This document shows, piece by piece, positions 2,399-40,705 of a stretch of 52,113 nucleotides of DNA. The position numbers and the translations under genes are program-made. The stretch spans positions 1 to 52,113 of the IMG/VR virus record IMGVR_UViG_3300014349_000035; one strand, given 5' to 3'. Within the stretch, counting starts at the first letter, position 1. Every line of letters begins with the position of its first letter. Under the pieces are notes generated by a model. The model was not told where the DNA came from and did no database searches. It saw only the letters and a program-made list of their open reading frames with translations. The stretch comes from a virus.

Positions 2399-2646
2399 GC
2401 CTCCTCGCCCGCATCGAGGCCAACGGCGGCGCGGTGATCCGCGACGAATGGCGCTTCAGCCTGCGCCGGGGCCGTCTGTCGACCGACGCTCTGGCGTGGC
2501 TGCGCGCTCGCTGGCCGGACGCCTGCCGCGAGGCGTGGCCGCTCTACGACGACTTCGAGGAGCGCGCCGCGATCATGGAGTTCGAGGCGAACATGCCGCG
2601 CGCCGACGCCGAGCGCGCCGCATATCAGGAGGTCGCCGGATGCTGA
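2395..2646 (+). CDS. hypothetical protein
   Basis: 83-aa ORF, ATGA-coupled to ParB-like gene, overlaps the helicase start by 7 nt. Confidence 0.5.
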   Translation: MSLLARIEANGGAVIRDEWRFSLRRGRLSTDALAWLRARWPDACREAWPLYDDFEERAAIMEFEANMPRADAERAAYQEVAGC

Positions 2647-6115: not shown

Positions 6116-6435
6116 CCGGTCTGACGGACGGTTTTAAGACAGTGGCGTCAGATGCAGGAAGCCTACCACGGGGCGGGACCACAGGCGAAGCGCAGTCCGA
6201 AAGAGAGAAGCGCGGTCCCCGGCACAGTGACCAAGGTGTCGCAAGTAGCTCTCGACGAGGCGGGGACGTCACTCCACCGGCTCGGCCCAAGGCGGCGGCT
6301 CGGCTCGGCCAGCAAGATCGCAATGGGATCGGACCGGCTCTGGCGCTGAAAAGCGCCGGGGCTGGTCGTCCTATGCCCGGACAGCAACTCTCTCATCCAG
6401 CAAATACAAGAGCTTAGAGAAGAAGGTTAAGAACA

Positions 6436-7431: not shown

Positions 7432-7619
7432 CCCGCAAGTGCGAGAACTGCCAGTGGTGGGTTTTCCCATCCCATGACGGCTACGGAGAGATCGGCCAGT
7501 GTCGGGGCTCGATCCCCAAGCAGCCGAATGACGGCAAGATGGGCGTCTGGCCGCTGACCTACGGCTCCTCGTGGTGCGGTTCCTTTCGCCTTCGTGAAGG
7601 GCTGGAGACTGCCGAATGA
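7428..7619 (+). CDS. small Cys-rich protein
   Basis: 63 aa from the ATG at 7428 (ATGA coupling). CENCQWW ... GQCRG ... WCG. Confidence 0.5.
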   Translation: MTRKCENCQWWVFPSHDGYGEIGQCRGSIPKQPNDGKMGVWPLTYGSSWCGSFRLREGLETAE

Positions 7620-13153: not shown

Positions 13154-14509
13154 ATGACCAAGCTCGCTCACGCGGGACGCGTCTCGCCGCGCCCGTTCGA
13201 ACGCAAGGACGACAACGGCGCCGGCAACGTCGTCGCCGAGATGAAGAAGGCCGTCGAGCCCGTGATGACTGCCTTCGAGCAGTACAAGCAGGCCAACGAC
13301 GCCCGTCTCGCCGAGATCGAGAAGAAGGGGGTGGCCGATCCGGTCACGACCGACAAGCTCGCCAAGCTGGACCAGCACTTCGACAAGTACGAAGGCCTGA
13401 ACCAGCGCATCACCGCCGCCGAGAAGATCGCCGATCAGGTCAAGTCGATCGACGAGCGCTTCGACCGCCTCGAGACGGCGCTGAAGCGCACCACCAACGG
13501 CATGTCGCCGGAGGAAAAGGCCGAGCGCACCAACCTCTGGTGCAAGTCGGTCGTGCTCGCCCACACCCTGGGCGTGCCGAACCTGTCGGCCGAACAGCGG
13601 GAAGTGCTCGAGGCCGTCAACAACGAGTACAAGTCGCTGAGCGTCGGTGTCGACAGCGCCGGCGGCTACCTGGCACCGGTCGAGTACGTCCGCGAGATCA
13701 TCAAGGGCGAGACCGAGATCAGCCCCTTCCGCAGCCTGGTCCGCGTGCGCCAGACGGCCAACAAGTCGGTGCAGCTGCCCAAGCGCACCGGCCAGTTCGC
13801 CGCCCAGCGCGTGTCGGAACAGGGCACGCGCTCCGAGACCACGGGTCTCACCTACGGTCTCGAAGAAGTGCCGGTCCACGAGCTGTTCGCCCTCGTCGAC
13901 ATCTCGAACGCCATGCTGGAGGACTCTGCCTTCGACATGGCCGCCGAGATCTCGATGGAGGCCCAGGAGCAGTTCGCGGTGAAGGAAGGCGCGGAGTTCG
14001 TCTCCGGCACCGGCGTCGGCCAGGCCGAGGGCATCCTCGCCACCAGTGCCGGCCTCTCCAGCACTGTCTCGGGCACGGCGACGACCATCGCGGACGCGGA
14101 CGGCCAGGCCAATGGCCTGCTGACCCTGAAGCACGCGATCAAGACCGCCTACACGCGCAACGCCAACTGGGCGATGAACCGCACCACGCTGGGTTCGGTC
14201 CGCAAGCTCAAGGACGCGGACAAGAACTACATCTGGATGCCGGGCCTGGCGCAGGGCAAGCCGAACACCATCGACGGCGACCCCTACATCGAGGTGCCGG
14301 ACATGCCGAACGAGGGGGCGAACACCTACCCCATCGCCTACGGCGACTTCCGCCGCGGCTATGTCTGGATCGACCGGATCTCGATGGAGATGCTGCGCGA
14401 CCCGTACACGCAGGCCACCTCGGGCAACGTGCGGTTCATCATCCGCAAGCGCTCGGGCGGTCAGGTCGTGCTCGCCGAGGCCATCCGCCTCCTGAAGTGC
14501 TCGACCTAG
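13154..14509 (+). CDS. major capsid protein, HK97 fold
   Basis: 451 aa with a coiled-coil delta-domain-like N-terminus followed by the capsid body. AAGGAGG RBS. Position follows the protease. Confidence 0.9.
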   Translation: MTKLAHAGRVSPRPFERKDDNGAGNVVAEMKKAVEPVMTAFEQYKQANDARLAEIEKKGVADPVTTDKLAKLDQHFDKYEGLNQRITAAEKIADQVKSIDERFDRLETALKRTTNGMSPEEKAERTNLWCKSVVLAHTLGVPNLSAEQREVLEAVNNEYKSLSVGVDSAGGYLAPVEYVREIIKGETEISPFRSLVRVRQTANKSVQLPKRTGQFAAQRVSEQGTRSETTGLTYGLEEVPVHELFALVDISNAMLEDSAFDMAAEISMEAQEQFAVKEGAEFVSGTGVGQAEGILATSAGLSSTVSGTATTIADADGQANGLLTLKHAIKTAYTRNANWAMNRTTLGSVRKLKDADKNYIWMPGLAQGKPNTIDGDPYIEVPDMPNEGANTYPIAYGDFRRGYVWIDRISMEMLRDPYTQATSGNVRFIIRKRSGGQVVLAEAIRLLKCST

Positions 14510-15121: not shown

Positions 15122-16507
15122 ATGCCCAAGACCGGCCTGAAGAGCGGTGAGCGCCAGGTGGCGACCCGCATCGAAGACGTCCGCCGCGACCACCGCGCCC
15201 GCTACGAGTGGGCGGCCAAGAACCTCGTGCCAGGTAGTTACGTAATCGACTGCGGCTGCGGCATCGGATACGGCGCGCGCATCCTCGCCGACGCCGGACA
15301 CCGGGTCTTTGCGGTCGACGCCGACGCCGAGACTATCGAGTTCGCGCGGGAGCGTTTCGGCCACCCGAACATCGAATTCTACCACTCGCCGGCCGAGGCC
15401 ATCGACTTCCCGCAAGCCGAAGCCGCCGTGTGCTTCGAGATGATCGAGCATGTCGCCAACCCGCGGCCGATCCTCAAGGCCCTGCGCGCCGCCGCTCCGG
15501 TGCTGCTGGCCAGCGTGCCGAACGAAGACGATTTCCCGTGGAAGCCCGAGTACGCCTTCCACCACCGGCACTACACGCCCGACCAGTTCGCCGATCTGCT
15601 CAACGACGCCGGCTATGAGCTTGCCGAGTGCCTCGGCCAAGTCGATGCCGAAGCCGATGTTCGTCCCCGGAGCGAAACCCGGAACCTGTGGCAAGGCCGC
15701 ACGCTGGTGGCGGTCGCTCGCCGCCGTGTGGTGGACCTCGCCGAGCCGACGTCCGCTTCCCAACTCGCGCCTGAGCCCAAAGGCCTCGGCCACGTCGTGA
15801 TCATCGGCCTCGGCCCGTCCGCCGAGCAGTACATGGACCTGACCAAGCGCCTCGGCGGGCGCTCGCGGTTCGCCGATCAAGTCTGGGCCATCAACGGGCT
15901 GGGCGACGTCCTGGCCTGCGACATGGTCTTCCACATGGACGACATCCGCGTGCAGGAGCGTCGCGCCGAGGCCGCGCCGGACAGCAATATCGCCACGATG
16001 GTCCGCTGGATGAAGAGCCATCCGGGGCCGATCATGACCAGCCGGGCGCATCCGGACTATCCGGGCCTCGTCGAGTTCCCGCTCGAGGACGTGATCAACG
16101 ACCTCGGCTACGCCTACTTCAACGGCACGGCGGCCTATGCGGCGGCCTACGCGATCCACCGCGGCGCCTCGAAGATCAGCTTCTTCGGCTGCGACTACAC
16201 CTACGCGAACAGCCACCAGGCCGAGAAGGGCAGGGCCTGCCTCGAGTTCTGGATCGGCTACGCGGCCGCGCGGGGCATCGACCTGGGCTTCGCCGACCGG
16301 ACGTCGCTCATGGATACCTGCGAGGATCCGGCCGACGCGGGCGAGCTCAACGTCTACGGCTACGACTTCGACACCGTCCGGATCGACACCTCGACCGGAA
16401 AGGCGCGCCTGACCTTCGAGCCGAAGGACAACCCGCCCACGGCCGCCGAGATGGAAGATCGATACGACCATAGCGCGCACCCCAACCCGCTGGTCACCAA
16501 GGCCTGA
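15122..16507 (+). CDS. fusion protein: class I SAM-dependent methyltransferase + MptE/Maf-like (DUF115-like) domain
   Basis: N-terminal half has VIDCGCGIGYGARILAD (SAM motif I) ... CFEMIEHV. C-terminal half has VVIIGLGPSAEQY ... CDMVFHMDD ... FNGTAAYAAAYAIHRGASKISFFGCDY, resembling MptE/Maf-type domains. Confidence 0.75.
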   Translation: MPKTGLKSGERQVATRIEDVRRDHRARYEWAAKNLVPGSYVIDCGCGIGYGARILADAGHRVFAVDADAETIEFARERFGHPNIEFYHSPAEAIDFPQAEAAVCFEMIEHVANPRPILKALRAAAPVLLASVPNEDDFPWKPEYAFHHRHYTPDQFADLLNDAGYELAECLGQVDAEADVRPRSETRNLWQGRTLVAVARRRVVDLAEPTSASQLAPEPKGLGHVVIIGLGPSAEQYMDLTKRLGGRSRFADQVWAINGLGDVLACDMVFHMDDIRVQERRAEAAPDSNIATMVRWMKSHPGPIMTSRAHPDYPGLVEFPLEDVINDLGYAYFNGTAAYAAAYAIHRGASKISFFGCDYTYANSHQAEKGRACLEFWIGYAAARGIDLGFADRTSLMDTCEDPADAGELNVYGYDFDTVRIDTSTGKARLTFEPKDNPPTAAEMEDRYDHSAHPNPLVTKA

Positions 16508-17961: not shown

Positions 17962-18957
17962 ATGCGGACTGACCGCCTCGCCAAGCTGATCGCCGACTGG
18001 GAGCCGCAGATCGCCGAGGCCTTCCTCGCGGCCGTGCGGGAGATCACGAACGAGGTCCGGTTCTCCGATCTCGTCGCGGCGATCAAGGCCGGGGATGTCG
18101 AGGGAGCGATCCGGCTGGTCGGACTGGACCCGCTGCAGTTCCGGGCGCTTGACCGGGCGATCGAGCAGGCCTTCGAGGACGCAGGCGTACAGACCATGCA
18201 GGGGATGCGCGGGCCGCTCGGCCTTCGCCTGGCGCCTCGCTTCGACTTCCGGGCGCCTGACGCCCAAGCATGGCTTCGCTCGCACGCGACGGAGCTCATC
18301 CGACAGATCACCGACGACCAGCGTGTGCTGATCCGGCAAGCGCTGGCTCCGCTGCGCTCTCCCCTCGACCCGATGATCACCGGCGATACGCCGCAAAAGC
18401 TGGCGCTCGACCTCGTCGGACGGGTCAATCGCGCGACCAACGCCCGCGAGGGGGGCATCCTCGGCTTGACGTCGCAGCAAGCCCGCTGGGCCGCCAACTA
18501 CGCCCGCGAGGTCGCGAATGCTGACCCGGCGGCGTTGACCCGCCTTCTCCGCGACCGCCGCTATGACGCTACGATCCGCAAGGCCATCCGCACGGGGCAG
18601 CCGATCGCCAAAGACCTGCAGGAGCGCATGGTCGAAGCCTACCGGAGTCGGGCCCTACGGCGTCGCGCCGAGACCATCGCGCTCAACGAGGCGGGGGAGG
18701 TCCTTCGCCGGGCTCAGCAAGAGGCCTGGGACCAGGTCATCGCCCGCGGCGTCGTGGCAGAGACCCGGGTCAAGCGCTTCTGGATCACGGTCGGCGATGA
18801 TCGGGTTCGTCCGACGCACGCGGCCGTGCCTGGCATGAACAAGGAAGGCGTGGGCCTGAAGCAGCCGTTTCAGACGCCCAAGGGGCCGGCGCTCAACCCC
18901 GGTTGGTCGTTTGATCCGGGTTGCCGCTGCCGGGTCCGGATCCGGCTGGCCGAGTAA
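17962..18957 (+). CDS. head morphogenesis protein (Mu F / SPP1 gp7-like)
   Basis: C-terminal RFWITVGDDRVRPTHAAVPGMNKEGV ... GCRCRV matches the Mu-F-like minor capsid domain. Confidence 0.8.
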   Translation: MRTDRLAKLIADWEPQIAEAFLAAVREITNEVRFSDLVAAIKAGDVEGAIRLVGLDPLQFRALDRAIEQAFEDAGVQTMQGMRGPLGLRLAPRFDFRAPDAQAWLRSHATELIRQITDDQRVLIRQALAPLRSPLDPMITGDTPQKLALDLVGRVNRATNAREGGILGLTSQQARWAANYAREVANADPAALTRLLRDRRYDATIRKAIRTGQPIAKDLQERMVEAYRSRALRRRAETIALNEAGEVLRRAQQEAWDQVIARGVVAETRVKRFWITVGDDRVRPTHAAVPGMNKEGVGLKQPFQTPKGPALNPGWSFDPGCRCRVRIRLAE

Positions 18958-20494: not shown

Positions 20495-21724
20495 ATGGCC
20501 GTTGCTCAGGGCCTCTACAAGCAAACCGTCTTCGCCAAGCAGTCCGGCCTCGGTACGCCGGCGACCACTGGCGGCCGCATCATGCGCCGGACGAACTCCA
20601 AGTTCGACCTGATGCGCGACACCTACGAGTCGAACGAGATCGTCAGCCACCAGCAGTCGACCGGCGCGAACGCGGGCATCGTCAAGACGTCGGGCAAGAT
20701 CGACTTCCTGATGTCGCCGCTGACGCAATCGCTGCTGTTCGCCTCGCTGCTGCGCAAGGACTTCGTGGCCGGCTTCACGGCGATCACCGGCGCCTCCATC
20801 ACCGTGGGCGCCGCGTCGGGCGGCCTGAACAACATTACCCGCGCCTCGGGCTCCTGGCTGACTGACGGCGTGAAGGTCGGCGATGTCGTCCGCTTTACGG
20901 CCGGCTCGATGGCTGCCGGCAATCTCAACAACAACATCCTGGTGGTCTCGATCACGTCTGCCACGGTGTTCGTCGGCAAGGTGCTGTCGGGCACTGCCCT
21001 GACGGCTGAGGGTCCGGTCGCGAGCGTCACCGTGACCTTCCAGGGCAAGAAGACCTACGTCCCGCTCACCGGCCACACCAAGGACTACTGGACGGTCGAG
21101 GAGTGCTACACCGACCTGGCGAAGTATGAGCAGTTCACCGACTGCGGCATCAGCAAGGCCGACATCTCGATCCCGGCCACCGGCAATGCGACGGTCAGCT
21201 TCGACGTGCCCGGCCTCAACCGCACGCGCAGCACCTCGGCCACGGTCGTCTCGCCGACCGCCGAGACCACGACCAACGTCCTGACCGCCGTCAACGGCGC
21301 TGTGATCGTCAACGGCGCCGTCACGACCATCACCGGGGCCACCATCACCATCGACGGGCATATCTCGCCCGGCGAGGCCGAGGTGGGCTCCAACACCATC
21401 GGCGACCTGATCCGCGGGGAAGTTTCGGTCTCGGGCAACTTCACCGCCAAGTTCTCGGCGACGACTCTTCAGGACATCTACGACAACCAAACCCTGGTGT
21501 CGCTGGTCCTGGCGATCACGGACGGCAGTTCCAAGACGGCCGACTTCGTGACGATCACGCTGCCGCAGATCAAGCTGTTCAGCGATGGCGCGGACGACGG
21601 CGAGGCCAAGGAAATCATCCGGACGTACGCCTTTACCGCGCAGATCCCGTCGACCACCGTCGGCGGCACGTCCCTGCAGCACTTCCAGACCATCTGCCAG
21701 ATCGTCGACAGCCAGGCCGCCTAA
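20495..21724 (+). CDS. major tail (tube) protein
   Basis: 409 aa, position upstream of the chaperone pair, followed by a hairpin. Confidence 0.65.
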   Translation: MAVAQGLYKQTVFAKQSGLGTPATTGGRIMRRTNSKFDLMRDTYESNEIVSHQQSTGANAGIVKTSGKIDFLMSPLTQSLLFASLLRKDFVAGFTAITGASITVGAASGGLNNITRASGSWLTDGVKVGDVVRFTAGSMAAGNLNNNILVVSITSATVFVGKVLSGTALTAEGPVASVTVTFQGKKTYVPLTGHTKDYWTVEECYTDLAKYEQFTDCGISKADISIPATGNATVSFDVPGLNRTRSTSATVVSPTAETTTNVLTAVNGAVIVNGAVTTITGATITIDGHISPGEAEVGSNTIGDLIRGEVSVSGNFTAKFSATTLQDIYDNQTLVSLVLAITDGSSKTADFVTITLPQIKLFSDGADDGEAKEIIRTYAFTAQIPSTTVGGTSLQHFQTICQIVDSQAA

Positions 21725-21817: not shown

Positions 21818-22255
21818 ATGAGCAAGACCAACACCGCCCCGTTCTCGATCGCCGACATCGAGGCCCAGGTCGCCACCGAGGAGACCGTCGACTTCGAGCC
21901 GACCCTGCCGGACGGCATCACGCCCTCGGGCGCCATCTTCAAGATCAAGTCCGACCTCGCGCCGAGCGTCGACGCCCGGCTCAAGGAGATGCTCGACCAG
22001 ATGAAGCGCCAGGACCAGCTGCGCGCCGCGCAGGCGGCCAAGGCGCGGCCGGGCGAGGTCATCGAGAGCACCGACGCGCAGGACCTGTTCGGCCGCCGGC
22101 TGATCGCCGTCCGCGTCGCGGGCTGGAACCTGCCGGACGAGTTCAACGAGGCGAACCTGCTCAAGCTGCTCAAGGGCTGGACAGGCCTCGGCGCGCAGAT
22201 CCTCGAGAAGTCGGCCGAACTCGCCCGTTTTACGCCGACCTCGCCGAAGGCCTGA
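21818..22255 (+). CDS. tail assembly chaperone (gpG-like)
   Basis: 145 aa, acidic, located between the tube gene and the tape measure region. Confidence 0.65.
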   Translation: MSKTNTAPFSIADIEAQVATEETVDFEPTLPDGITPSGAIFKIKSDLAPSVDARLKEMLDQMKRQDQLRAAQAAKARPGEVIESTDAQDLFGRRLIAVRVAGWNLPDEFNEANLLKLLKGWTGLGAQILEKSAELARFTPTSPKA

Positions 22256-22341
22256 TCGCCTACGCCGAGGGGCAATTCGAACTAGAGCGGCTGGTCGGAG
22301 AGGGATCGCTCAAGGCGCCTCGTCGCATCCATCTGGAGGCG

Positions 22342-22617
22342 ATGGCCCGGCAGGGCGACATCGAGGCCGAGAACGAACTCTACAACGGCCCGCAGCTTCC
22401 GCCGCTCGCCGCGTATCTGTGGAACTGGTGGATCGAACTCGCGGCCACCCGAACCAACAGCGGCTTCGGCCCGAACCCGATCACCCGCCATGATCTGCAC
22501 GCCTGGGAGGCCGACACGCACCACCGCCTCCGGGCATGGGAGCGACAGGCGATCCTGCGCATCGACGCCCTCTGGCTGGCCTCCGTCAGGGCAGCTGACG
22601 AGAAGGAGAGCAAGTAG
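22342..22617 (+). CDS. tail assembly chaperone second ORF (gpT-like), in the -1 frame relative to 21818..22255
   Basis: The frame is open far upstream of its first ATG with no in-frame ATG/GTG/TTG, and it overlaps the whole end of the gpG-like gene. LWNWWIEL ... ITRHDLHAWE ... WERQAILRID pattern. Confidence 0.55.
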   Translation: MARQGDIEAENELYNGPQLPPLAAYLWNWWIELAATRTNSGFGPNPITRHDLHAWEADTHHRLRAWERQAILRIDALWLASVRAADEKESK

Positions 22618-22665
22618 ACGAGCGCGACAACCGCAAGTAGCCTCGCGGCGCGTAGTGGGGAGGAA

Positions 22666-22977
22666 GTGCTCGTGGAAATCCTGATCATCGCCGTCATCAT
22701 CGGCCTGCTGCCGGCGTTCATCGCCAGGTCCAAAGGCTACAACTTCTTCGGCTGGTGGCTGTTCGGCGCTGCGCTCTGGATCGTCGCGTTCCCGATGGCG
22801 CTGACCCTGAAGCCGAACAAGAAGGTGATCGAGGCTCGGCAGATGGCGCTGAACGACATGAAGAAGTGCCCGCAATGCGCCGAGCTGATCAAGCGCGAGG
22901 CCAGGGTCTGCCGGTTCTGTGGTGCGGACTTCACTGGCGGCGCGGCGTCAACAGAAGGCGCCGCAGCGAACGTCTAG
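22666..22977 (+). CDS. membrane protein with C-terminal zinc ribbon
   Basis: GTG start 5 nt after GGGGAGGAA. Two TM helices (ILIIAVIIGLLPAFI, WWLFGAALWIVAFPMAL). CPQC ... CRFCG. Confidence 0.7.
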   Translation: MLVEILIIAVIIGLLPAFIARSKGYNFFGWWLFGAALWIVAFPMALTLKPNKKVIEARQMALNDMKKCPQCAELIKREARVCRFCGADFTGGAASTEGAAANV

Positions 22978-23192
22978 GGCCTCAACAAGCCCATCCCGAT
23001 CAGCGCCTCGGCGGCCAGCCGGCGCAGCGCCTCGGGGCGGGACAGTTCCTCCGGCGGGATGCGGTCGCGCTGCTCGGCAATCCAGGTGTCGACGGCGTTC
23101 AGCAGGTCGGGCGGAACCCTAACGCCGACGTGGACCGAGCCGACCGGCGGGCGTCCTCGCTTTTTTCTGTCATCAGATATTGACGTCATCAT
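22974..23192 (-). CDS. ribbon-helix-helix (CopG/Arc-like) regulator
   Basis: 72 aa from ATGATG at 23192. KKRGRPP, then VGVRVPPDLLNAVDTWIAEQ ... SRPEALRRLAAEAL (beta-alpha-alpha). Stop overlaps the convergent upstream gene's stop (CTAG). Confidence 0.7.
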   Translation of the reverse strand: MMTSISDDRKKRGRPPVGSVHVGVRVPPDLLNAVDTWIAEQRDRIPPEELSRPEALRRLAAEALIGMGLLRP

Positions 23193-23209
23193 TAAACGAT
23201 GACAGAAAA
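23163..23209. promoter_or_regulatory. 12-bp perfect inverted repeat bracketing the RHH start codon, in an AT-rich patch
   Basis: TTTTCTGTCATC-23 nt-GATGACAGAAAA. The spacer contains TGACGTCA and the ATGATG start (minus strand). GTCATC/GATGAC hexamer occurs three times. Confidence 0.5.
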
Positions 23210-23280
23210 GACGGGCCGGAGCAAGGAGGCAACCTTGCAACCGGCCCTGACCTGAACCGACGATCACTGGAGGATCGCGA

Positions 23281-23697
23281 ATGGCCCAAGCTGGCCGTAT
23301 CTATACCCGTCCCCGGCCCGAGCCGGAAGTTGCCGCCGCGAACGTTCGCGCAATGCTCGCTCCCTTCTTCAGGGGCGACATGCGCGGCGGCGCTGCTGCT
23401 GAACCGAACAATCGCCCGAACCTGCCGACGTCCGGCCGCGAGGCCCTGGAGCTGCTGGTCGAGCGTCTGATCGACGAGATGGACCGCATCGACGGCGACG
23501 CCGACCTCGAGCTCGAATGCGAGGACGAGGGCGCCGAGTGCAACGACGAGGGCTTCGACAGCGACAGCGAGCCGTGCCTCGGTCGCCCGGAGGCGCACTC
23601 GCTGATGAGCGGCATCGGCCCGCTCAGCGAGCGGCATCACCGCACCGGCGGACTGTTCGAGTTCGGCGGCGCCACCTTCGATGAGGCCTGCGTCTGA
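23281..23697 (+). CDS. acidic hypothetical protein
   Basis: 138 aa. Central DEMDRIDGDADLELECEDEGAECNDEGFDSDSEP block. Transcribed divergently from the RHH gene. Confidence 0.6.
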   Translation: MAQAGRIYTRPRPEPEVAAANVRAMLAPFFRGDMRGGAAAEPNNRPNLPTSGREALELLVERLIDEMDRIDGDADLELECEDEGAECNDEGFDSDSEPCLGRPEAHSLMSGIGPLSERHHRTGGLFEFGGATFDEACV

Positions 23698-24341
23698 TGG
23701 CCGTCGCGAAGACCACGACTGCGATCGAACTCCCGCCGCTGGCGCTGGAGACGGTCGAAATCCCGCTGATCGGAACCGCGCCGCTCATCGTTCATGCCTG
23801 GAGCGAGAAGGCGCTGCGGGCGATGGCCGACAAGCAGCAGAAGAAGGCCACCAAGGGCCGCGAGGCCAAGGACCCCCGCGCCGACTTCATCGGCTCGCTC
23901 TATCCGCTGACGGAACTGCCGGAGAAGCCGAGCGACGAAGACCTCGCCGCGGCCCGCTTCGGCTTCCCCGCGGTGGCGTTCAAGTCGGCGGCGGTCACGG
24001 CCTGCACGTCGACGGGCGCGATCACGAAGGTGGCCGCGAGGCAGGCCTTCCACGTCGAGGGCGAGATGGTCGAGATCATCGGCCCGCCGCCGGCGATGCG
24101 CGAGGACGTCTGCCGCGTCGGCATGGGCGTCGCCGACCTGCGCTACCGGGGTCAATTCGACCCGTGGGGCGTCAAGGTCCGCGTCCAGATCAACACGGCG
24201 GTCATCTCGCCGGAGCAGGTGGTCAACCTGTTCGGTCTGGCCGGGTTCGCGGTCGGCATCGGCGAGTGGCGTCCCGAGCGCGACGGCGGCTACGGTCGCT
24301 TCCGCGTCGCGGCGGCTGGTGAACTGGAGGCGCTGGCATGA
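23697..24341 (+). CDS. hypothetical protein (conserved-looking, function unknown)
   Basis: 214 aa, ATGA-coupled. GFPAVAFKSA ... DLRYRGQFDPW ... GIGEWRPERDGGYGRF. Confidence 0.65.
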   Translation: MAVAKTTTAIELPPLALETVEIPLIGTAPLIVHAWSEKALRAMADKQQKKATKGREAKDPRADFIGSLYPLTELPEKPSDEDLAAARFGFPAVAFKSAAVTACTSTGAITKVAARQAFHVEGEMVEIIGPPPAMREDVCRVGMGVADLRYRGQFDPWGVKVRVQINTAVISPEQVVNLFGLAGFAVGIGEWRPERDGGYGRFRVAAAGELEALA

Positions 24342-24823
24342 CGCGTGTCATCTACGGCTGGCGGTCTGGCTCGCGCGTCAATCTCGACGCGCAGCTTGCC
24401 GGTGAGGCTCTGGCGCGGCTCCAGAAGGGCAAGAACGACCTGCTGGAGCCCGCCGACATCGTGAACGCGGCGCGGGACGCGAAGTCCGTCCTGCACCCGC
24501 ACTTCGAGTGGGACGATACGGTCGCGGCGGAAGCCTACCGCTGCGATCAGGCCCGCGAACTGGTCCGGTCGCTGACGGTCGACGTCAGCCGGTCGAACCT
24601 TGAAGCGAAGCCCGTCCGGGCCTTCGTGAACGTCGAGGCGGGCGGCGAACGCGGCTACGTCTCGACCGTGACGGCGATGTCGTCGCAGGAACTACGGCAG
24701 CAGGTCATCGCCAAGGCCTGGGCCGAACTGGAGGCGTGGCGGCGACGTCACGCGGAGCTCACTGAACTCGGTCGTATCTTCTCGATGATCGACCAAGGGA
24801 TTGAGGCTCTGCCGGGCTCCTAG
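24338..24823 (+). CDS. hypothetical protein
   Basis: 161 aa, ATGA-coupled. LHPHFEWDDTVAAEAYRCDQARELVRSL motif. Confidence 0.65.
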   Translation: MTRVIYGWRSGSRVNLDAQLAGEALARLQKGKNDLLEPADIVNAARDAKSVLHPHFEWDDTVAAEAYRCDQARELVRSLTVDVSRSNLEAKPVRAFVNVEAGGERGYVSTVTAMSSQELRQQVIAKAWAELEAWRRRHAELTELGRIFSMIDQGIEALPGS

Positions 24824-24835
24824 CCCCGGCGAAAC

Positions 24836-25010
24836 GAGGCAGGCATGGCGGGGCATCGCAGGCCCCGGCCTGGCATGGCGTGGCCTGGCGTGCCCAGGTC
24901 AGGCGGGCCAAGGCAGGCAAGGCATGGCGAGGCGGCGTTAGGCGTCGCGCGGCATGGCGAGGCAGGCGTGGTCAGGCAAGGCGTTGCGGGGCGAGGCGGG
25001 TCTTCGCTTG
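24836..25010 (+). repeat. G-rich degenerate short repeats (GGCATGGCG x4, GGCAGGC/GGCGAGGC variants)
   Basis: GGCATGGCG at 24842, 24872, 24921 and 24951 (spacing 30/49/30). GGCATGGCGAGGC(G/A)GGCG occurs twice, 30 nt apart. Strong G over C skew on the + strand. Confidence 0.5.
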
Positions 25011-25035
25011 GCGAGCCAAGGCTGGTCAACTCAAG

Positions 25036-25061
25036 AAGGGCGGCTCTCGCGGGCCGCCCTT
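25036..25061 (+). terminator. 9-bp GC hairpin closing the accessory island (no U-tract)
   Basis: AAGGGCGGC-8 nt loop-GCCGCCCTT. Confidence 0.4.
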
Positions 25062-25114
25062 CGCACATCTGAACATCACCATCTTCCAACAGCCGCCAGA
25101 CGGAGGGCGAACGC

Positions 25115-28100
25115 ATGGCCGACACGATCGCCAGCCTGATGATCGTCATCGACGCGGCCCAGGCTGCGCTCGCCGCGGCGAAGATGGACGACGCGACCCG
25201 TGCGGCGGGAAGCCTCGAAACGCAGGTCAAGAAGGTCGGCGACACGTCGAAGGCGGCGGCTGCGGGGATGGCCGCGATCCCGGCTGCGCTGCGTGACATC
25301 GACGCGCGGACGGACGCCCTGCGCGCCTCTGTCGACCCGCTGGCGCTGGCCCAGAAGAAGGCCAACAAGGAGCTTGCCGAGGCCGCCAGCCTTTACCGGC
25401 TCGGCGCGATCTCGGCTCAGGAATACGCGAACTACGGCGCGGTCCTTGAGGGGCGGCTGGAGACCATCACGTCGGCGCAGAACGCGCTGAACATGGCGCA
25501 GGGACGCGGCACCCGGCAGATGGGCCTTACGGCACAGGAAAGCTTGAACCTGTCGCGCCAGATCGCAGACGTGGGCGTCTCGCTCGCCTCCGGGCAGGCG
25601 CTTTGGATGGTCGCGATCCAGCAGGGCGCGCAGCTCGGCGACATCTACCAGACAGCGTCGGCGCGAGGCGTGACCTTCAGCGCCATGATCGGCACGGCGG
25701 GGCGTCAGATTGGCGGCTTCGTGGCCCGGGTCGCGCCAGCGGCGGCCTTGCTTGCCGCCGCTGGCGCCGCCATCGCCCTGCCGTGGAAGGTCGCAGCCGA
25801 GGAGATCGAGGACAGTTCGGAGCGGATCGCGCGAAGCCTCGGCGCCACCGAAACGCAGATGAAGCGCATCAAGGAGGAGGGCGTCGGTATGGGCGACACC
25901 CTCGTCGCCGTGTTCGAGGTCATCGGCCAGCGTGCGTGGAAGGTGTTCGGAGAAGACCTCACGGCACTCGGCAACAGGGCCAAGGGGTTCTACGACGGTC
26001 TCGTCGATGGCGCGGACAAGGCCATCGGATGGATGATCGGCGCGTTCCTCGCCTTCACGCGGACGGTCGGTATCTACCTGGGCAACCTGCCGGCGTTCGC
26101 GTCGGAGGCGATGGTCAATATGGCCAACGCCGTCGTTGGCGGCCTTGAACGCCTGCTGAACGAATTCATCGGCAAGATCAACGCGCTCGGAAACGCGGTT
26201 GAGGCCATCGCAACTGCGCTCGGCCGCAACATCGACATCCCCAACATCCCGGACGTCGACTGGAAGGGCTGGGAGCAGCGGAACACCGGCGCGGCCGTTG
26301 AGACCGTCCGGCGGATGCGTGAGGCGGCTGCTAGCGCTTGGTCGGACGGTGCGGCGATGTGGGACGCCTTCAAGGCGGACGTCGCCCGCGAGGCCGTCAA
26401 CAACGCCATGGGCGACCCGGGCAAGCCGAAGAAGGACCGCGAGGGCCGGAGCGAGAAGGAGGGCGTCGACGAGTTCGCCCGCGCGCTGGACGAGTTCAAC
26501 GACCGGATGCGCGAACGCAACGCCCTGGCGTCGGAATACGAGCGCATCGTCTCTCGGATGCCGACCGGCGAACAGCTCGCCAACGCCGAGTATGCGATGC
26601 TTGCGGGTCGCTCGGCTGACGACCTGGGCCGCGCCGCCGACGAGATGGCGCAACTCGACCGCCTGACGCAGCAGGCCGCCGGAAACATGGCCAGCGCGTT
26701 CGGTCAGGTCGGCAAGGCCATCGGCGGCATGGTCTCGGCAATGTCGCAATACAAGTCGATCCAGTCAGACGCGGCGGCGCGCTCCGCCTACGCGCTGAAG
26801 GCCTACCGCGATGCGATGAAGGGCACCGACCAGGAAGCCCAGAAGCGCACGCTGGAGGAATACTACCGCGTGCAGCGCGAAGGCGCGCGCGAGACCGCTG
26901 CGGCGCAGGTCGACGCCTACGGCTCGATGGCCAGCGCGGCCAAGGGCTTCTTCAAGGAAGGCAGCGACGGCTACAAGGCCATGCAGGCTGTCGAGGCCGG
27001 GTTCCGTGCGTGGCAGATGGCCATGTCGATCCAGGCCATGGTGCAGGACACCACCGAGACGAGTTCCAAGGTCGCGAACTCGATGGTGAAGGGCGGCGCG
27101 TCGGCGGCGGCTGGCGCGGCCAAGATCTTCGAGGCGCTCGGCCCGTTCGGCTTCCCCGTCGTCGCGGCGATGCTTGGCGTCCTCGCTTCGCTGGGCCTCA
27201 ACACCGGAGGCGGCGGCAGCAGTGGCGTCGCGATCTCCGAGCGGCGCCAGCGGGAACAGGGAACGGGAACCGTCCTCGGCGACGCCAACGCCAAGAGCGC
27301 GAGCATCGCCAATGCGCTGGAGATCGTGGCGGCGAACACGAACCGCGACCTCGAATACAGCAACGCCATGCTGCGCGCCCTGCGCTCGATCGACGACCAG
27401 ATCGGCGTCGTCGCGGCGGCCATCGCCCGGCAACTCGGCGCGTCGGGCATCCTCGACACGTCCAGCCTGAACCTCGGCACGTCCGGCAAGGCGCCGTCCC
27501 TGATGACGCTAGGCTTCGGCTCGGTCACGACGCGGACGCTGAAAGACCTCGGCCTCGAGTTCGGATCGCAGTCGCTGGCCGACATCCTCGCCAACGGCAT
27601 CGACGGGGCGGCCTATTCGGTGGTGCAGTCGACCAAGAAGAAGTCGGCCCTCGGCATCACCTACAGCAGCTCGACCTCGACCAAGACGAAGAAGACCGAA
27701 CTCGACGCCGCGCTGGCGGACGAGATCACCCGCGTCATCGGAAGCCTGCGCGACGGCGTGCTGGCGGCGGCTTCGGTGCTGGGCGTCTCCGGCGCCGAGG
27801 CGGTGCTGGCGGCCTTCAAGGTCAACATCGGCAAGATCAGCCTGAAGGACATGACCGGCGCCGAGATCGAGGAGACGCTTCAAGCGGTCTTCTCCAAGGT
27901 CGGCGACGAGATGGCCGGGGCGGTGCTGCCGGGCCTCAAGGCGGTGCAATCGGTCGGCGAGGGCCTGTTCGAGACCCTGATCCGGGTCGCCCGGCAGTAT
28001 CAGGTCATCGACGTCACGCTGTCGACCATCGGCAAGACCTTCGGCATGGTCGGGGTCTCCTCGATCGAGGCCCGCGAGCGGCTGGTCGACCTGTTCGGCT

Positions 28101-29074
28101 CGCTGGACGACTTCACCGAGCAAGTCGGCTTCTACAGCGAGACCTTCCTGACGGAAGCCGAGCGGCTGGCCCCGATCCAGACTGCGGTGACGGCGGAACT
28201 GGCTCGGCTCGGCCTGTCGGGGATCAAGACCCGCGACCAGTTCAAGTCGGTGGTGCAGGGCCTCGACGTCTCCACGGCCGCCGGCGCCGAACTGTTCGCC
28301 GCCCTGATGGCGCTCGCCCCCGCCTTCGCGAAGGTCACGGAGGAGACGCAGGCGGTCACGGACGCCCGGGAGGCCCTTTCGCGGGCCTACGAGCGCGAGA
28401 GCGAGGCGATCCTCGACACCAAGGACCGTTTCGCCCAGCTGGCGGCCGACCTCGGGAAGTTCCGCTCGAGCCTCTACAGCGGCCCGGCGGCGGCCATGTC
28501 GCCAGAGGCCGCGTATCTCGCCGCCCAGGCCGAGTTCGCGCGCGTCCGGGGCCTGGCCCTCGGCGGCAACGAGCAGGCGCTGGGCGAGCTTCAGAGCGTC
28601 AGCCAGGCCTACCTCGACGCCTCGAAAGCCTACTTCGCCTCGTCGCAGGGCTACTTCGCCGACCTTGAGGCCGTCCGGGCGGCGGTCACGGCGGCCGAGG
28701 GCATCGCAGGGGCGCAGGCGACGCTGGCTGAACAGCAGCTCGAACAGCTCAAGTCGCTGGTCTCCGGCTACATCGAGGTCAACGAGAGCGTGCTCTCTGT
28801 TCGCGACGCCGTGGTCGCTCTCCAGACGGCGCTCGGTCTCCCGGCGAACGGCGCGGCTCCGGCCGCCCCGCTGGCGCCTTCGACGCAAGCCGCCAACGAC
28901 AACGCCGCCGCCCAGGCCGCCGCCCTCGACGAGATCAGGCAGGAGCTTGCGGCCCTCAACGCCCGCATGGACGCCAAGTTCGCGCAGGACGCCGCGATCT
29001 ACGCCGCCGAGCGGGCGGACCTCGAAACGCAGACCGAGGCCCTCGCCCGCCGCCTGCGGGATCTCACCGCTTAA
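25115..29074 (+). CDS. tape measure protein
   Basis: 1319 aa, Ala-rich helical, Gly-rich TM-like segment (GPFGFPVVAAMLGVLASLGL). GGAGGG RBS. Position matches a tape measure. Confidence 0.9.
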   Translation: MADTIASLMIVIDAAQAALAAAKMDDATRAAGSLETQVKKVGDTSKAAAAGMAAIPAALRDIDARTDALRASVDPLALAQKKANKELAEAASLYRLGAISAQEYANYGAVLEGRLETITSAQNALNMAQGRGTRQMGLTAQESLNLSRQIADVGVSLASGQALWMVAIQQGAQLGDIYQTASARGVTFSAMIGTAGRQIGGFVARVAPAAALLAAAGAAIALPWKVAAEEIEDSSERIARSLGATETQMKRIKEEGVGMGDTLVAVFEVIGQRAWKVFGEDLTALGNRAKGFYDGLVDGADKAIGWMIGAFLAFTRTVGIYLGNLPAFASEAMVNMANAVVGGLERLLNEFIGKINALGNAVEAIATALGRNIDIPNIPDVDWKGWEQRNTGAAVETVRRMREAAASAWSDGAAMWDAFKADVAREAVNNAMGDPGKPKKDREGRSEKEGVDEFARALDEFNDRMRERNALASEYERIVSRMPTGEQLANAEYAMLAGRSADDLGRAADEMAQLDRLTQQAAGNMASAFGQVGKAIGGMVSAMSQYKSIQSDAAARSAYALKAYRDAMKGTDQEAQKRTLEEYYRVQREGARETAAAQVDAYGSMASAAKGFFKEGSDGYKAMQAVEAGFRAWQMAMSIQAMVQDTTETSSKVANSMVKGGASAAAGAAKIFEALGPFGFPVVAAMLGVLASLGLNTGGGGSSGVAISERRQREQGTGTVLGDANAKSASIANALEIVAANTNRDLEYSNAMLRALRSIDDQIGVVAAAIARQLGASGILDTSSLNLGTSGKAPSLMTLGFGSVTTRTLKDLGLEFGSQSLADILANGIDGAAYSVVQSTKKKSALGITYSSSTSTKTKKTELDAALADEITRVIGSLRDGVLAAASVLGVSGAEAVLAAFKVNIGKISLKDMTGAEIEETLQAVFSKVGDEMAGAVLPGLKAVQSVGEGLFETLIRVARQYQVIDVTLSTIGKTFGMVGVSSIEARERLVDLFGSLDDFTEQVGFYSETFLTEAERLAPIQTAVTAELARLGLSGIKTRDQFKSVVQGLDVSTAAGAELFAALMALAPAFAKVTEETQAVTDAREALSRAYERESEAILDTKDRFAQLAADLGKFRSSLYSGPAAAMSPEAAYLAAQAEFARVRGLALGGNEQALGELQSVSQAYLDASKAYFASSQGYFADLEAVRAAVTAAEGIAGAQATLAEQQLEQLKSLVSGYIEVNESVLSVRDAVVALQTALGLPANGAAPAAPLAPSTQAANDNAAAQAAALDEIRQELAALNARMDAKFAQDAAIYAAERADLETQTEALARRLRDLTA

Positions 29075-29089
29075 CCCACGGAGACCGCC

Positions 29090-31762
29090 GTGACCGTTGT
29101 TACCCGCAACAGCCCGCCCTTCGGCGCGGGCGGACAGGCCGTCGTGTACGTCGGCGAGACCGTCACGGTCGGCTTCCGGCTGACCGACGTCGCCGGCGTG
29201 GTGCAGTCCTACACCGGCCGCACCTTCGGCCTGCAGGTCTATCTCGACGGCGGCTCGAACAAGATCAACGTGAACGGCGCGCTCGTCTCTCACGCTGACG
29301 GCGACTACATCGAGTGCGTCCTGACCGACGCGGAAACCGACAACCTCACTGCCGGCGCGCTCTACGGCTGGGGCTTCGTCGAGTACACCGACGACGGCCC
29401 GATGGTGATCTGCGGCGGCGTGATCAAGGCGGCTGCGGGCGCCACGGCCGCCCAGGCCTCGGGATCGCCCGGGACCGGCTACAGCGGCACGACGCTCTAC
29501 ACGCTGCGCACCGACAGCAACATCGTGACCGTCACCTACCTGGGCACGCCGGGCGCGGGCGTACTGCCGGGCGGAACGGATGGCCAGTTCCTCGTCAAGG
29601 ACGGGGCCAGCGACTACTCGACCGAATGGGTGACGCTCGGGATCGCGCACGTCTCGGGCCTCTCGGCCAGCCTGTCGACCCTGACGTCGGCGGACGTGTC
29701 CCTGACCGCGCGCCTCTCTGCCGAGGAAGATGCGCGCGCCTCTGCCGACACCAGCCTCACCTCCCGGCTGTCGACGGAAGAGGTGACGCGTGCGGCGGCC
29801 GACACCAGCCTGACGAGCCGCCTGAGCGCGGAGGAGGGGGCCCGCGCCGCCGGCGATGCGTCCCTGACGACGCGGATCTCGGCGGAGGAGGTGACGCGGG
29901 CGAACGCGGACGGCTCGCTCACGACGCGGCTGAGCGCCGAGGAAGCCGCCCGCGGCGCGGCCGACACCTCGCTCACGACCCGCCTGTCGACGGAAGAAGA
30001 CACGCGCGCCACGGCCGATACGAGTCTGACCACGCGGCTGGGCATCGAAGAGACGACGCGTTCCACGGCGATCTCCAACGCGACGGTGGCTCAAACTTCC
30101 CTGACCAGCCGGATCAGCACCGAGGAAGGCGCGCGAGCGAGCGCCGATGCGTCGCTAGCCGCGCGCGCCCTAAGCTCTCCAACGATTGTCGGTGAACCTA
30201 TGCTTGGCGGCGGCGACGCCATCGGCGCACCCGCCGTCGCCCCGACGCCAGTGGCCGACGCGGCTGGTGTTTTGACCGGAACCTATCAATACGCCTACGC
30301 CGAGAGCGACGGCACGGGCATGTCGCCGCTATCGCCCATTGGCTCTGTGACGGTCACGGGCAAGAAAATCCTCGTCACCGTGCCGCCACCCCGTCGCGGG
30401 ACTAGCGAGCGCATCCTCTACCGCACGGAGGCCGGGGGGTCAGTGTTCAAGCAGGTGCATAGCTTCGGTGGCGGCAGCCGATTCTTCAAAACAACCGTGC
30501 TTGATAACACCGCCGACGTCGACTTGGGCGCGGTTCACGGAACCACCGGCGCGCATCCGGGGCCGGACACGACCGCGCTTGTCCGCTTCCAGATGGCTGA
30601 GACGGTGATGTCCCTTCGCAGTCACCCTGGCGCCACTGGCAGCGGCCCCGCCGATTTGACGAACCTCATGGGCGACAGCGGCTACACGTCCGGCGCCTAT
30701 TGTCACGACGTTTATGGTGAGTATCTCGGCCGAACCTATCTGGGGAGCACCTTCGCCAGCCAGAAGACCGGCACGAACGGCACTCACTTCTCGGCCTATT
30801 GGACAGACGAGGCGGACGAAACGGGCCTTTCCACGGTCTACCGCCTCAACCCGCGTGGCGGTGTTTCGATTACTCCGACGACGCTTTCTGACCCGTCTCT
30901 GGGAGATGGCCATGCGTTGGCGCATTCGGTGGTCGCGACTCTGCCCAGCGCCCCGACCGGCAATGCGATCGCCATACAGGAGGTCGTGACCGGCGCTGGG
31001 TCGGCGGCATATCGCCAAACCGCGTCGTCGACCCGGTTGTCTGCCGGATACACCGGTTCGGCGCCGACGGTCGCCAAGACGGTGACCAACGCCTCCGCGA
31101 ACCTGGGAACCTCGGTCGGGCTGGAGGCTGCGGCGACCGGCGCGGCGGGGTTGTCGATTGGCGCGGCCGGCCGCGCCAGCGCCGGAACCAAGAGGATCGG
31201 CGTCCTCGGCGACAGCTCGGGGATCAGCCTCGACACCTTCTCGCCGACCTGGCCATCGGGGGTCGGTGGCGCGGGCGGCATGTTCACGAACGGGGCCAAT
31301 ACCGACGACATCCTGATCTGCCTAGACAACGTCACGCCTGTGCTCCGCGTGACGAATGGCGGCGGGTTCGTCGCCGAGGGGCTGAACAGCAACACGTCCA
31401 CCGCCTACGACTTCGCAACGTCCGGCAAGGGCAATTTCCGCATCCTCGCCAATGGCAACACCGACATCAGGCTCGGCTCGACCAACAATGTCCCGGTGCT
31501 GTTCACGGTCAACAGTGCGACCGTGATGAACTTGGGCACGGCAGGGGCCGTTAACTTTGCGGCGTCTTCTGCTGCAACGGCACACGCCAGCGCGCAGGTT
31601 GAAATCACGTCCACCACCAAGGGCTTCCTGCCGCCGCGCATGACGGGAACCCAGCGTGATGCGATCAGCAGCCCGGCCACAGGGCTGGTTGTCTACAACA
31701 CCACGACGCAAAAGCTGAATGTTTACACTGGCGCCGCGTGGGAAGCGGTGACGTCGTCTTAA
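29090..31762 (+). CDS. tail fibre protein with coiled-coil repeat stalk
   Basis: 890 aa from a GTG start. 18-aa tandem repeats. C-terminal GFLPPRMTGTQRDAISSPATGLVVYNTTTQKLNVYTGAAWEAV is a common fibre C-terminal motif. Confidence 0.8.
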   Translation: MTVVTRNSPPFGAGGQAVVYVGETVTVGFRLTDVAGVVQSYTGRTFGLQVYLDGGSNKINVNGALVSHADGDYIECVLTDAETDNLTAGALYGWGFVEYTDDGPMVICGGVIKAAAGATAAQASGSPGTGYSGTTLYTLRTDSNIVTVTYLGTPGAGVLPGGTDGQFLVKDGASDYSTEWVTLGIAHVSGLSASLSTLTSADVSLTARLSAEEDARASADTSLTSRLSTEEVTRAAADTSLTSRLSAEEGARAAGDASLTTRISAEEVTRANADGSLTTRLSAEEAARGAADTSLTTRLSTEEDTRATADTSLTTRLGIEETTRSTAISNATVAQTSLTSRISTEEGARASADASLAARALSSPTIVGEPMLGGGDAIGAPAVAPTPVADAAGVLTGTYQYAYAESDGTGMSPLSPIGSVTVTGKKILVTVPPPRRGTSERILYRTEAGGSVFKQVHSFGGGSRFFKTTVLDNTADVDLGAVHGTTGAHPGPDTTALVRFQMAETVMSLRSHPGATGSGPADLTNLMGDSGYTSGAYCHDVYGEYLGRTYLGSTFASQKTGTNGTHFSAYWTDEADETGLSTVYRLNPRGGVSITPTTLSDPSLGDGHALAHSVVATLPSAPTGNAIAIQEVVTGAGSAAYRQTASSTRLSAGYTGSAPTVAKTVTNASANLGTSVGLEAAATGAAGLSIGAAGRASAGTKRIGVLGDSSGISLDTFSPTWPSGVGGAGGMFTNGANTDDILICLDNVTPVLRVTNGGGFVAEGLNSNTSTAYDFATSGKGNFRILANGNTDIRLGSTNNVPVLFTVNSATVMNLGTAGAVNFAASSAATAHASAQVEITSTTKGFLPPRMTGTQRDAISSPATGLVVYNTTTQKLNVYTGAAWEAVTSS
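29699..30165 (+). repeat. about 8 in-frame tandem copies of a 54-nt (18-aa) unit, SLT(S/T)RLS(A/T)EE..R...AD.
   Basis: SLTARLSAEEDARASADT / SLTSRLSTEEVTRAAADT / SLTSRLSAEEGARAAGDA / SLTTRISAEEVTRANADG / SLTTRLSAEEAARGAADT / SLTTRLSTEEDTRATADT ... Confidence 0.8.
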
Positions 31763-40519: not shown

Positions 40520-40705
40520 ATGAGCGACGCAACAGGTGTTATACAAAAAAGACGCGGGCGACCGACGACGGGTCACAAGCTCGTAGCCCTCCGGTTCACG
40601 CCTGACGCGCTGGCCAAGATCGACGCTTGGGCGGCTGAAAACGAAATCCCCGACAACCGCTCAGAAGCCATCCGCCGCCTGGTAGAGCTAGGGCTGGGGA
40701 GGTAG
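40520..40705 (+). CDS. ribbon-helix-helix regulator, paralogue of 22974..23192
   Basis: 61 aa. KRRGRPTTG, then LVALRFTPDALAKIDAWAAEN ... NRSEAIRRLVELGL. GTTATACA repeats at 40505 and 40538 bracket the start codon. Confidence 0.65.
   Translation: MSDATGVIQKRRGRPTTGHKLVALRFTPDALAKIDAWAAENEIPDNRSEAIRRLVELGLGR

Follow-up and report, generated by a model that had tools for sequence, protein, structure and literature searches.

VIPR systems (short for Viral Interference Programmable Repeat), described in 2026, are phage-borne, CRISPR-like RNA-guided DNA-binding systems (bioRxiv 10.64898/2026.04.26.720920; a second VIPR preprint is bioRxiv 10.64898/2026.04.26.720927). The characterised examples, from Escherichia phage SUSP1 and a Pseudomonas fulva prophage, are type II systems, and their central protein, Vipr, is a small phage RAMP that polymerises on a guide RNA (vrRNA) of 9-16 GGY-NN pentamers; the protein holds the GGY bases while the NN bases pair with double-stranded DNA that is read as NNx, every third base being skipped, and transcription is silenced, an effect abolished by perturbed NN pairing (bioRxiv 10.64898/2026.04.26.720920, 10.64898/2026.04.26.720927). 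Published targets are satellites and lysis-lysogeny regulators, the authors' cut-off for natural targets was 80%, a level at which they saw no self-hits, and staggered vrRNA arrays with 1-nt overlaps appear in fig. S18 of the VIPR paper (bioRxiv 10.64898/2026.04.26.720920, 10.64898/2026.04.26.720927). Here we analysed a viral DNA stretch of 52,113 nt (IMG/VR record IMGVR_UViG_3300014349_000035, positions 1 to 52,113; the whole stretch is called the window in the following), and we are highly confident that a VIPR system makes up the island at 22618-25114, which separates its tail chaperone genes from the tape measure gene; the guides appear to be aimed at the tail genes of sibling phages and would silence them by RNA-guided interference.

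Like the published VIPRs, the window encodes a RAMP homologous to SUSP1 Vipr in which the GGY-reading residues are kept, adjoined by tandem GGY-NN guides of 10-15 units and a vap gene. The cassette is likewise phage-borne and free of cas genes and CRISPR repeats, its array is staggered with 1-nt overlaps as in fig. S18, and its predicted targets, lying on either strand of competing phages, show the 1-nt skip with the wobble base as the one skipped. Unlike the characterised systems, it has one shared 3' hairpin per array instead of a pseudoknotted tail per vrRNA, a different Vap, a divergent regulator of the ribbon-helix-helix (RHH) type, and a location embedded between tail chaperone and tape measure genes. 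Its predicted targets also differ, being tail structural genes of sibling phages (tape measure, tube) that are matched reciprocally instead of satellites and lysis-lysogeny regulators, and one guide matches a gene of its own carrier at 82% (the absence of such matches is a property of the published sets and does not define the family). Five open reading frames (ORFs) and a G-rich repeat separate the tail chaperones from the tape measure gene, all five at the places where an earlier reading of the window, here called the original prediction, had put them:

22666..22977, plus strand: zinc-ribbon membrane ORF (Pfam UPF0547/Zn_ribbon_3, phrog_8436)
22974..23192, minus strand: RHH-type regulator (phrog_4738)
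23150..23280: divergent control region with an AT-rich patch and an inverted repeat
23281..23697, plus strand: acidic 138-aa ORF, coupled to vipr
23697..24341, plus strand: predicted vipr, 214 aa, a RAMP (Cas7-like)
24338..24823, plus strand: predicted vap, 161 aa, co-inherited with vipr
24842..24916, plus strand: predicted vrRNA guide 1, 15 GGYNN units
24916..24965, plus strand: predicted vrRNA guide 2, 10 units
24965..25029, plus strand: predicted vrRNA guide 3, with 11 guide units ending at 25019 and the conserved 3' handle GGCTGGTCAA behind them
25035..25062, plus strand: 12-bp GC hairpin, 3' tail or terminator of the array

The 214-aa protein can be identified, from sequence comparison and its modelled fold, as a Vipr, a minimal RAMP (Cas7-like). 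Compared with the PDB by phmmer it gave a single match, chain 36pp_D "SUSP1 Vipr protein" (E=3.1e-3), and a profile of 39 homologues returned SUSP1 Vipr (36pp) as the sole credible match at E=1.3e-8. Both proteins share about 20-25% identity and are alignable chiefly over the C-terminal third; the GGY-reading residues H17, R138 and D177-W178-R179 of SUSP1 Vipr align to H33, R151 and E190-W191-R192 of the window protein. Across the family R151, W191 and R192 are invariant, H33 is conserved to at least 90%, position 190 is always E or D, and in the G-loop motif G-[VI]-G-[ED]-W-R-P the G, W, R and P are invariant across homologues, of which 3803 proteins were found at E<=1e-3. The AlphaFold2 (AF2) model of the 214-aa protein (pLDDT 78), searched with Foldseek against a PDB copy older than the Vipr entry, matched only Cas7-type RAMPs, including type VII Cas7, Csm3, Cmr4/6, Cas7-11 and Cascade Cas7 (probability 0.9-1.0, E from 5.6e-4). 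By analogy with the published systems, Vipr should polymerise on the vrRNA with one protomer per GGYNN unit. The original prediction had left the operon proteins without a known family, a statement that is superseded for the 214-aa protein (Vipr) and for the 161-aa protein (Vap), as name and mechanism of the system had been published by 2026. Searches of the three operon proteins against Pfam, NCBIfam and PADLOC were without a significant match, and PHROGs gave "unknown function" families only.

The predicted RAMP fold is shared with the backbone proteins of class 1 CRISPR-Cas systems (Cas7, Csm3, Cmr4, type VII Cas7), as is the published mechanism, polymerisation along a guide RNA with periodic base flipping. 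Unlike these systems, the window locus has no repeat-spacer array, Cas1, Cas2, Cas5, Cas6, large subunit, adaptation module or nuclease, its guide is a pentamer repeat carrying information in two of five bases, and the proteins are 8-13% identical. Tandem and direct repeat scans found no array with a 25-40-nt repeat, and no Rfam CRISPR repeat or other Rfam family was found in 22000-25600.

The original prediction had treated the G-rich repeat as a feature marking the end of the island; the array is real, and we read it instead as the guide-RNA array at the heart of the system. Positions 24842-25029 parse into 38 pentamers whose positions 1, 2 and 3 are G, G and C/T in 33, 32 and 38 of 38 units, respectively, with mixed bases at positions 4-5. 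GGY starts 27/38 consecutive pentamers, against p(GGY)=0.055. A period-5 GGY run of at least 7/10 occurs at a single place on either strand across the 52 kb (observed value 8), and one of 100 Markov simulations reaches 7/10. Two register shifts interrupt the array, each at "GGCAG|GC", where the last G of a GGCAG unit is also the first G of the next run, and the same GGCA leader (24838-24841) precedes guide 1. This layout argues for a guide locus of three staggered vrRNAs overlapping by one G. Guide 1 has the NN code AT GG AT AG CC CT AT GT CT GT CA CA GG AA (AG), its last unit being GGCAG, and guide 2 has AA AT GA GG TA GT GC AT GA (AG); guide 3 with its handle occupies 13 of the 38 units, and its coded peptide is VQ[KN]VGEG[FL][FL]E. 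In more than 25 related loci, 59 unique guides adjoin vipr in the same GGCAG-terminated, 1-nt-overlapping layout, actinophages included; among these loci are those of Saal (a Mycobacterium phage), the Gordonia phages ODay and Pipp, a Brevundimonas prophage and many phages from metagenomes. In three of the loci (L004, L009, L011) a further array lies on the strand opposite to the cassette and upstream of it.

A 75-aa ORF (24845-25072) coincides with the array and was rejected as protein-coding, given that the repeat runs at period 5 and its register shifts. In Gordonia phage Pipp, gp43 (L003:5611-5880, annotated as 'hypothetical protein') coincides with guides at 5617-5671, 5724-5778 and 5778-5832, and is probably a non-coding artefact of the same kind.

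Behind the array, the terminal hairpin that had been predicted is present, with a stem of 12 bp, not 9 bp (25035-25062, GAAGGGCGGCUC-UCGC-GGGCCGCCCUUC); the 66-nt stretch containing it folds with a minimum free energy of -27.8 kcal/mol (z = -3.55). A GGGCGG...CCGCCC stem with varying loops follows the arrays of nine related loci (L004, L005, L007, L008, L011, L013, L014, L015 and L100), and in most alphaproteobacterial loci the last guide is followed by a GCTGG(T)C handle and the GGGCGG/CCGCCC hairpin, one per array. This array-end hairpin may simply be a terminator.

For targets of the guides, we searched with queries in which GGY was replaced by one wildcard according to the published 1-nt skip rule; public collections were scanned with exact patterns only, using 8-10-unit seeds. 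In the metagenome collection, units 4-12 of guide 1 gave 14 seed matches, approximately the chance number, two of which (L054 and L045, GC-rich contigs with identical sequence) extend to 12 consecutive perfect units and 25/28 NN bases. The codon-aligned site (CGGCGGCATGAGCCCGCTGATGGTGCTGGTGCAGCAGGGC in L054), in which the skipped base falls on the wobble position, encodes GGMSPLMVLVQQGS and lies within a TMP_2/Tape_meas_lam_C tape measure gene beside DUF2460 and lysozyme genes. Best matches of guide 1 in L054/L045 under skip 0 and skip 2 reach 15-18/30, versus 25/30 for skip 1. At homologous tape measure sites the fit of guide 1 is graded and weakens with the distance of the phage: three further phages score 21/30, 19/30 and 16/30, and the window's own gene (25588-25632) scores 14/30. 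Peptides fitting guides 1 and 3 were also found among 150 tape measure homologues, in the sense frame only (MGMNPLMVLVQQGP, 12/14, and VQKVGEGLFET, 10/11), with antisense readings at background level.

In viral contigs, guide 1 gave 0 matches with units 4-12 and one and three matches, none of which extend, with units 1-9 and 7-15; guide 3 seeds gave 1 and 0 matches. A guide 3 seed gave 29 matches in genome contigs, which are not wobble-aligned, come from diverse taxa and were judged to be chance. Cultured phages contained distant homologues only of both tape measure target regions. Within the window, no guide reached at least 75% of NN bases at skip 0, 1 or 2 (guide 3 tested at full length).

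Further target relations link the window with a sibling phage, L100, which is syntenic to it and carries the cassette at the same site. Window guide 1 matches the L100 tape measure gene at 22/28 and window guide 3 at 19/22, both codon-aligned. Conversely, the first guide of L100 matches the window tape measure gene at 23/24 NN bases (27137-27172, antisense, codons GPFGFPVVAAM), a level reached by 0/500 shuffles in its 11-unit form and 0/200 in its 12-unit form, and a solo 10-unit vrRNA of L100 (L100:3853-3902) matches the window tube gene at 19/20 (21082-21111, plus strand, codons DYWTVEECY). None of 200-500 unit-order shuffles reached these four cross-matches. The own alleles of L100 score 15-16 against its guides, among them its tube allele DYWTCEEAY with 15/20 against the solo vrRNA, and the window's own alleles have 4-16 mismatches to its guides 1 and 3. 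Judging by these sequence matches, natural targeting in this clade appears to be directed at the tail structural genes of close relatives, with siblings targeting one another, and self appears to be set apart from non-self by a few changes at positions 1-2 of codons. The solo vrRNA lies between the tube (2559-3779) and chaperone (4015-4446) genes of L100, about 2.5 kb upstream of vipr and outside the main array; the window, with a tube-chaperone gap of 93 nt, has no equivalent of it. An all-against-all comparison of the 59 guides gave one match with two or fewer mismatches, under skip 1; it pairs an L004 guide (3419-3488, minus strand) with a tail-fibre-like ORF at L011:5146-5178 (20/22, codon-aligned, YNTFTDASNGE).

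The cassette itself does not co-diverge with its neighbours, because window and L100 are 97% identical in Vipr and 89% in Vap (compared stretches 23694-24959 and 6357-7612, respectively) versus 70% in the tube protein, 29% and 61% in the chaperones and 45% in the tape measure. Judged from these identities, this points to a recent exchange or to a much stronger constraint on the cassette. Despite near-identical Vipr and Vap proteins the NN strings differ between the two phages, with GGY conserved.

Several observations weigh against the reading as a VIPR system that silences sibling phages, among them near matches of guides to genes of their own carriers. Guide 3 (11 units) matches the window's own tape measure gene at 27943-27975 (plus strand, VQSVGEGLFET) in 18/22 NN bases (82%; 69-75% if 12-13 units are counted), which 3/1000 unit-order shuffles reach (p=0.003) and which exceeds the 80% cut-off at which the VIPR authors saw no self-hits. 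For guide 2 no target was found: its best in-window match is 14/18 in the chaperone gene (p=0.30), all 10 units gave 0 matches in viral contigs, and the 13 matches of an 8-unit seed all lie in unrelated ORFs of low-GC contigs and were judged to be chance. Further, the mechanism is adopted by analogy from preprints on type II systems (SUSP1, P. fulva) and not from this clade, the predicted vrRNA ends derive from register shifts and a figure legend, and the comparisons place the locus firmly in VIPR at the level of the family, with no type number or vap1-6 class. Vap gave no significant Foldseek or PDB-profile match (best MarR and ScpB at E ~0.7), and since a simple sigma-70 consensus scan detected no promoter, we only infer one.

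Near-self matches are not confined to the window. In locus L018 a guide (4175-4224) matches the carrier's own portal gene (52-1425; site 894-920, EQLRWTAEV) at 15/18 (p=0.003), with mismatches that comprise a leucine codon-family switch (CTA vs TTx) and an arginine for lysine, changes that would evade a wobble-tolerant recognition. L103 guides match the tape measure gene of their own phage at 21/28 and 19/24, and across the window, L018, L103, L105 and L008 the near-self matches range from 75 to 83%. Such matches in the carriers' own adjacent structural genes at several loci, together with the location of the cassette inside the tail operon, would fit a system that also or mainly regulates its carrier, with partial guides damping tail-gene transcription in the lysogen or timing lytic growth. 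We regard this as unlikely: better matches exist in other phages (L100 with 19/22 for guide 3, and L100 guides with 23/24 and 19/20 on the window), guide 3 has a better fit to natural alleles, for example VQKVGEGLFET, than to the window's own VQSVGEGLFET, the own-gene mismatches include whole units and leucine CTN/TTR codon-family switches that resemble escape changes, and silencing was lost in the published systems when NN pairing was perturbed. We read the near-self matches as the probable footprint of guides aimed at sibling alleles, with self-regulation as a less likely alternative.

The resemblance, at 75-83%, of guides to adjacent genes of their carrier may be a sign that homologues of neighbouring genes are the source of new guides or what these are selected against. 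We lean slightly towards the wider view that the same-site cassettes, the escape of own alleles including the leucine CTN/TTR switches, and guides made from or selected against neighbour-gene homologues together reflect a reciprocal, allele-specific arms race of kin discrimination. As far as we found, neither reciprocal tail-gene targeting nor an own-gene match of 82% has been reported earlier.

For silencing directed at sibling phages, we propose the following course of events. Under control of the RHH protein, a promoter located in the AT-rich divergent region would drive the operon of acidic ORF, vipr and vap and the downstream array, making cassette transcription independent of the late operon. 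The array transcript, ending in the conserved hairpin, would yield three staggered vrRNAs of 10-15 GGYNN units each, with neighbours overlapping by one G. Vipr protomers would polymerise on each vrRNA, one per unit, burying the GGY bases and presenting the NN bases, and the ribonucleoprotein would bind double-stranded DNA read as NNx NNx NNx, that is at codon positions 1-2 with the wobble base skipped. DNA binding, assisted by Vap, would block transcription, and the outcome would be an allele-specific silencing of tail genes in competing sibling phages, whether superinfecting or co-resident.

Regarding the partners of Vipr, a homologue of the 161-aa protein adjoins vipr in 33/35 related loci, including Saal gp52, ODay gp20 and Pipp gp44, and the order of vipr, vap and array differs among loci. 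By this co-inheritance we assign the protein as the Vap, the accessory protein of the system; modelled by AF2 at pLDDT 88.6, it may be a DNA-binding winged-helix protein whose C-terminal helix is long.

The opposite-strand regulator of the original prediction is backed by phrog_4738 (transcriptional repressor, E=4.8e-5) and weakly by Pfam RHH_1 (E=0.08). Its homologues lie upstream on the opposite strand in 13/35 Vipr loci, one of them, in the Brevundimonas prophage L008, being 68% identical and overlooked by the gene caller; tblastn gave no match in cultured phages. As had been noticed earlier, its stop codon overlaps that of the zinc-ribbon ORF in CTAG (22974-22977), and the divergent region holds the most AT-rich patch, 23150-23209, which at GC 0.40 is the lowest-GC 60 nt of 18-32 kb. 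A 21-nt imperfect inverted repeat (23163-23183 / 23189-23209) spans the RHH start and is a candidate operator. Because the RHH gene recurs and the inverted repeat spans its start, a dedicated regulator is supported, and the RHH protein is a probable repressor or autoregulator of the cassette.

The two remaining ORFs are described correctly by the original prediction, and are, as far as their distribution tells, cargo or at least not conserved VIPR parts. The zinc-ribbon ORF has two N-terminal hydrophobic segments, a CxxC...CxxC pattern and matches in Pfam (E ~1e-6) and PHROGs (phrog_8436, E=1e-28); it has no homologue in the 35 related VIPR loci, and in L008 a lipoprotein-like ORF occupies its slot. 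Its start is more likely GTG 22672, 8 nt past a GGAGG, than GTG 22666, which is only 2 nt past. The acidic ORF (29 D+E vs 13 K+R) gave no family matches, has homologues in 2/35 loci and in four other proteins among 5.8 billion, and does not align with the upstream small ORFs of other loci. The translational coupling within the operon that had been predicted is present, as TGATG at 23695-23699 and ATGA at 24338-24341. From this comparison across loci, the conserved unit consists of vipr, vap and the vrRNA array, joined in this subclade by the RHH gene. The idea of a self-regulated five-gene cassette thus holds for the recurrent divergent regulator (13/35 loci), not for the zinc-ribbon and acidic ORFs.

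RHH regulators are typical of toxin-antitoxin loci, PADLOC reported a weak AbiEi match for the 161-aa protein (E=0.005), and the role of the array as an RNA is read from its sequence, all of which would suit a protein-only module for toxin-antitoxin, abortive infection or anti-defence functions, with the G-rich repeat as a terminator region or low-complexity spacer. This is very improbable, as most related loci, in spite of their varying gene order, have the period-5 GGY array together with vipr, the GGY-reading residues are conserved, in-frame matches of the decoded guides to phage genes are far above shuffled controls, and PADLOC, Pfam and NCBIfam give no significant family.

The distribution of the cassette confirms the mobility that was suspected originally. 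Settings of the vipr-vap-array unit include the early or immunity region in cluster F mycobacteriophages and in Pipp, baseplate clusters of myoviruses, and sites beside unrelated genes. At the junction of tail chaperone and tape measure genes it also occurs in Gordonia phage ODay, the Brevundimonas prophage (between TAC_11 and TMP_3), L100 and L103, phages that differ in their tail gene families. In L103 (4982-7660) the cassette lies between TAC_18 and TMP_2, inverted relative to the tail operon, and the junction is therefore an insertion hot spot regardless of orientation. Location in the tail operon and recurrence at this junction are what would speak for ordinary tail or assembly proteins conserved at this position, a reading that can be dismissed almost entirely, since the unit also sits in early/immunity regions, baseplate clusters and beside unrelated genes and is inverted in L103, Vipr is 97% identical between window and L100 versus 29-70% for the flanking tail proteins, and the predicted fold is that of a RAMP and not of a tail protein. 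The original classification as an accessory, self-contained cassette of the defence or superinfection-exclusion class is upheld. In the myovirus-type tail cluster L105 (7727-8945), a DUF2513 gene and a MazE/PemK toxin-antitoxin pair come after the VIPR cassette, which gives the stretch the look of a small island of accessory genes.

Prophage morons and superinfection-exclusion cassettes in late operons are known from lambda (rexAB-type), P22 (sieA-type) and the prophage-mediated defence genes of mycobacteriophages. Like these, the window cassette is independently regulated and accessory, lies inside the structural operon of a temperate phage and would act against other phages. Unlike them, its predicted effector is RNA-guided and sequence-programmable, and aimed at alleles of homologous genes instead of a generic infection step.

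The carrier is a temperate siphovirus genome of 52 kb with 67% GC, probably of a Caulobacterales-like host, and encodes an integrase, in favour of lysogeny. Its landmark genes, including those flanking the island, are:

at 9343: large terminase
at 10820: portal
13154-14509: HK97-type capsid gene
20495-21724: tube protein (Phage_tube_2, E=1.5e-21)
21818-22255: tail chaperone 1 (Phage_TAC_4)
22342-22617: tail chaperone 2 (Phage_TAC_18)
25115-29074: tape measure (TMP_2)
40688-41932, minus strand: integrase

Between the capsid gene and a Mu_F-like gene (17962-18957) lies a 461-aa ORF for an S-adenosylmethionine-dependent methyltransferase (15122-16507), possibly a further accessory insertion. An 890-aa ORF (29090-31762) downstream of the tape measure gene contains a 54-nt tandem repeat (Tandem Repeats Finder, 1.9 copies, 29914-30018), surrounded by a longer run of 'SLT(S/T)RLS.EE..RA.AD' peptide repeats; it has no Pfam family match and presumably encodes a tail fibre or distal tail protein.

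The VIPR family as such was already known, and nothing in the locus is categorically new. What the window adds is a clean natural example from a different clade, with a staggered array, in alphaproteobacterial phages and related to the cassettes of actinophages. For genome annotation, it implies that period-5 G-rich "ORFs" (for instance Pipp gp43) beside genes of phrog_4652 and phrog_15946 are to be read as guide arrays and not as proteins. In the pair of window and L100, weapon and targets are both legible from the sequence, and this pair would allow testing whether the silencing of a late structural gene suffices to exclude a rival, and how guides diversify. The cases with 18/22, 19/22 and 23/24 matching bases bear on the number of NN mismatches that separates self from non-self, and an origin of guides from homologues of neighbouring genes, if true, would bear on how vrRNA specificities arise.

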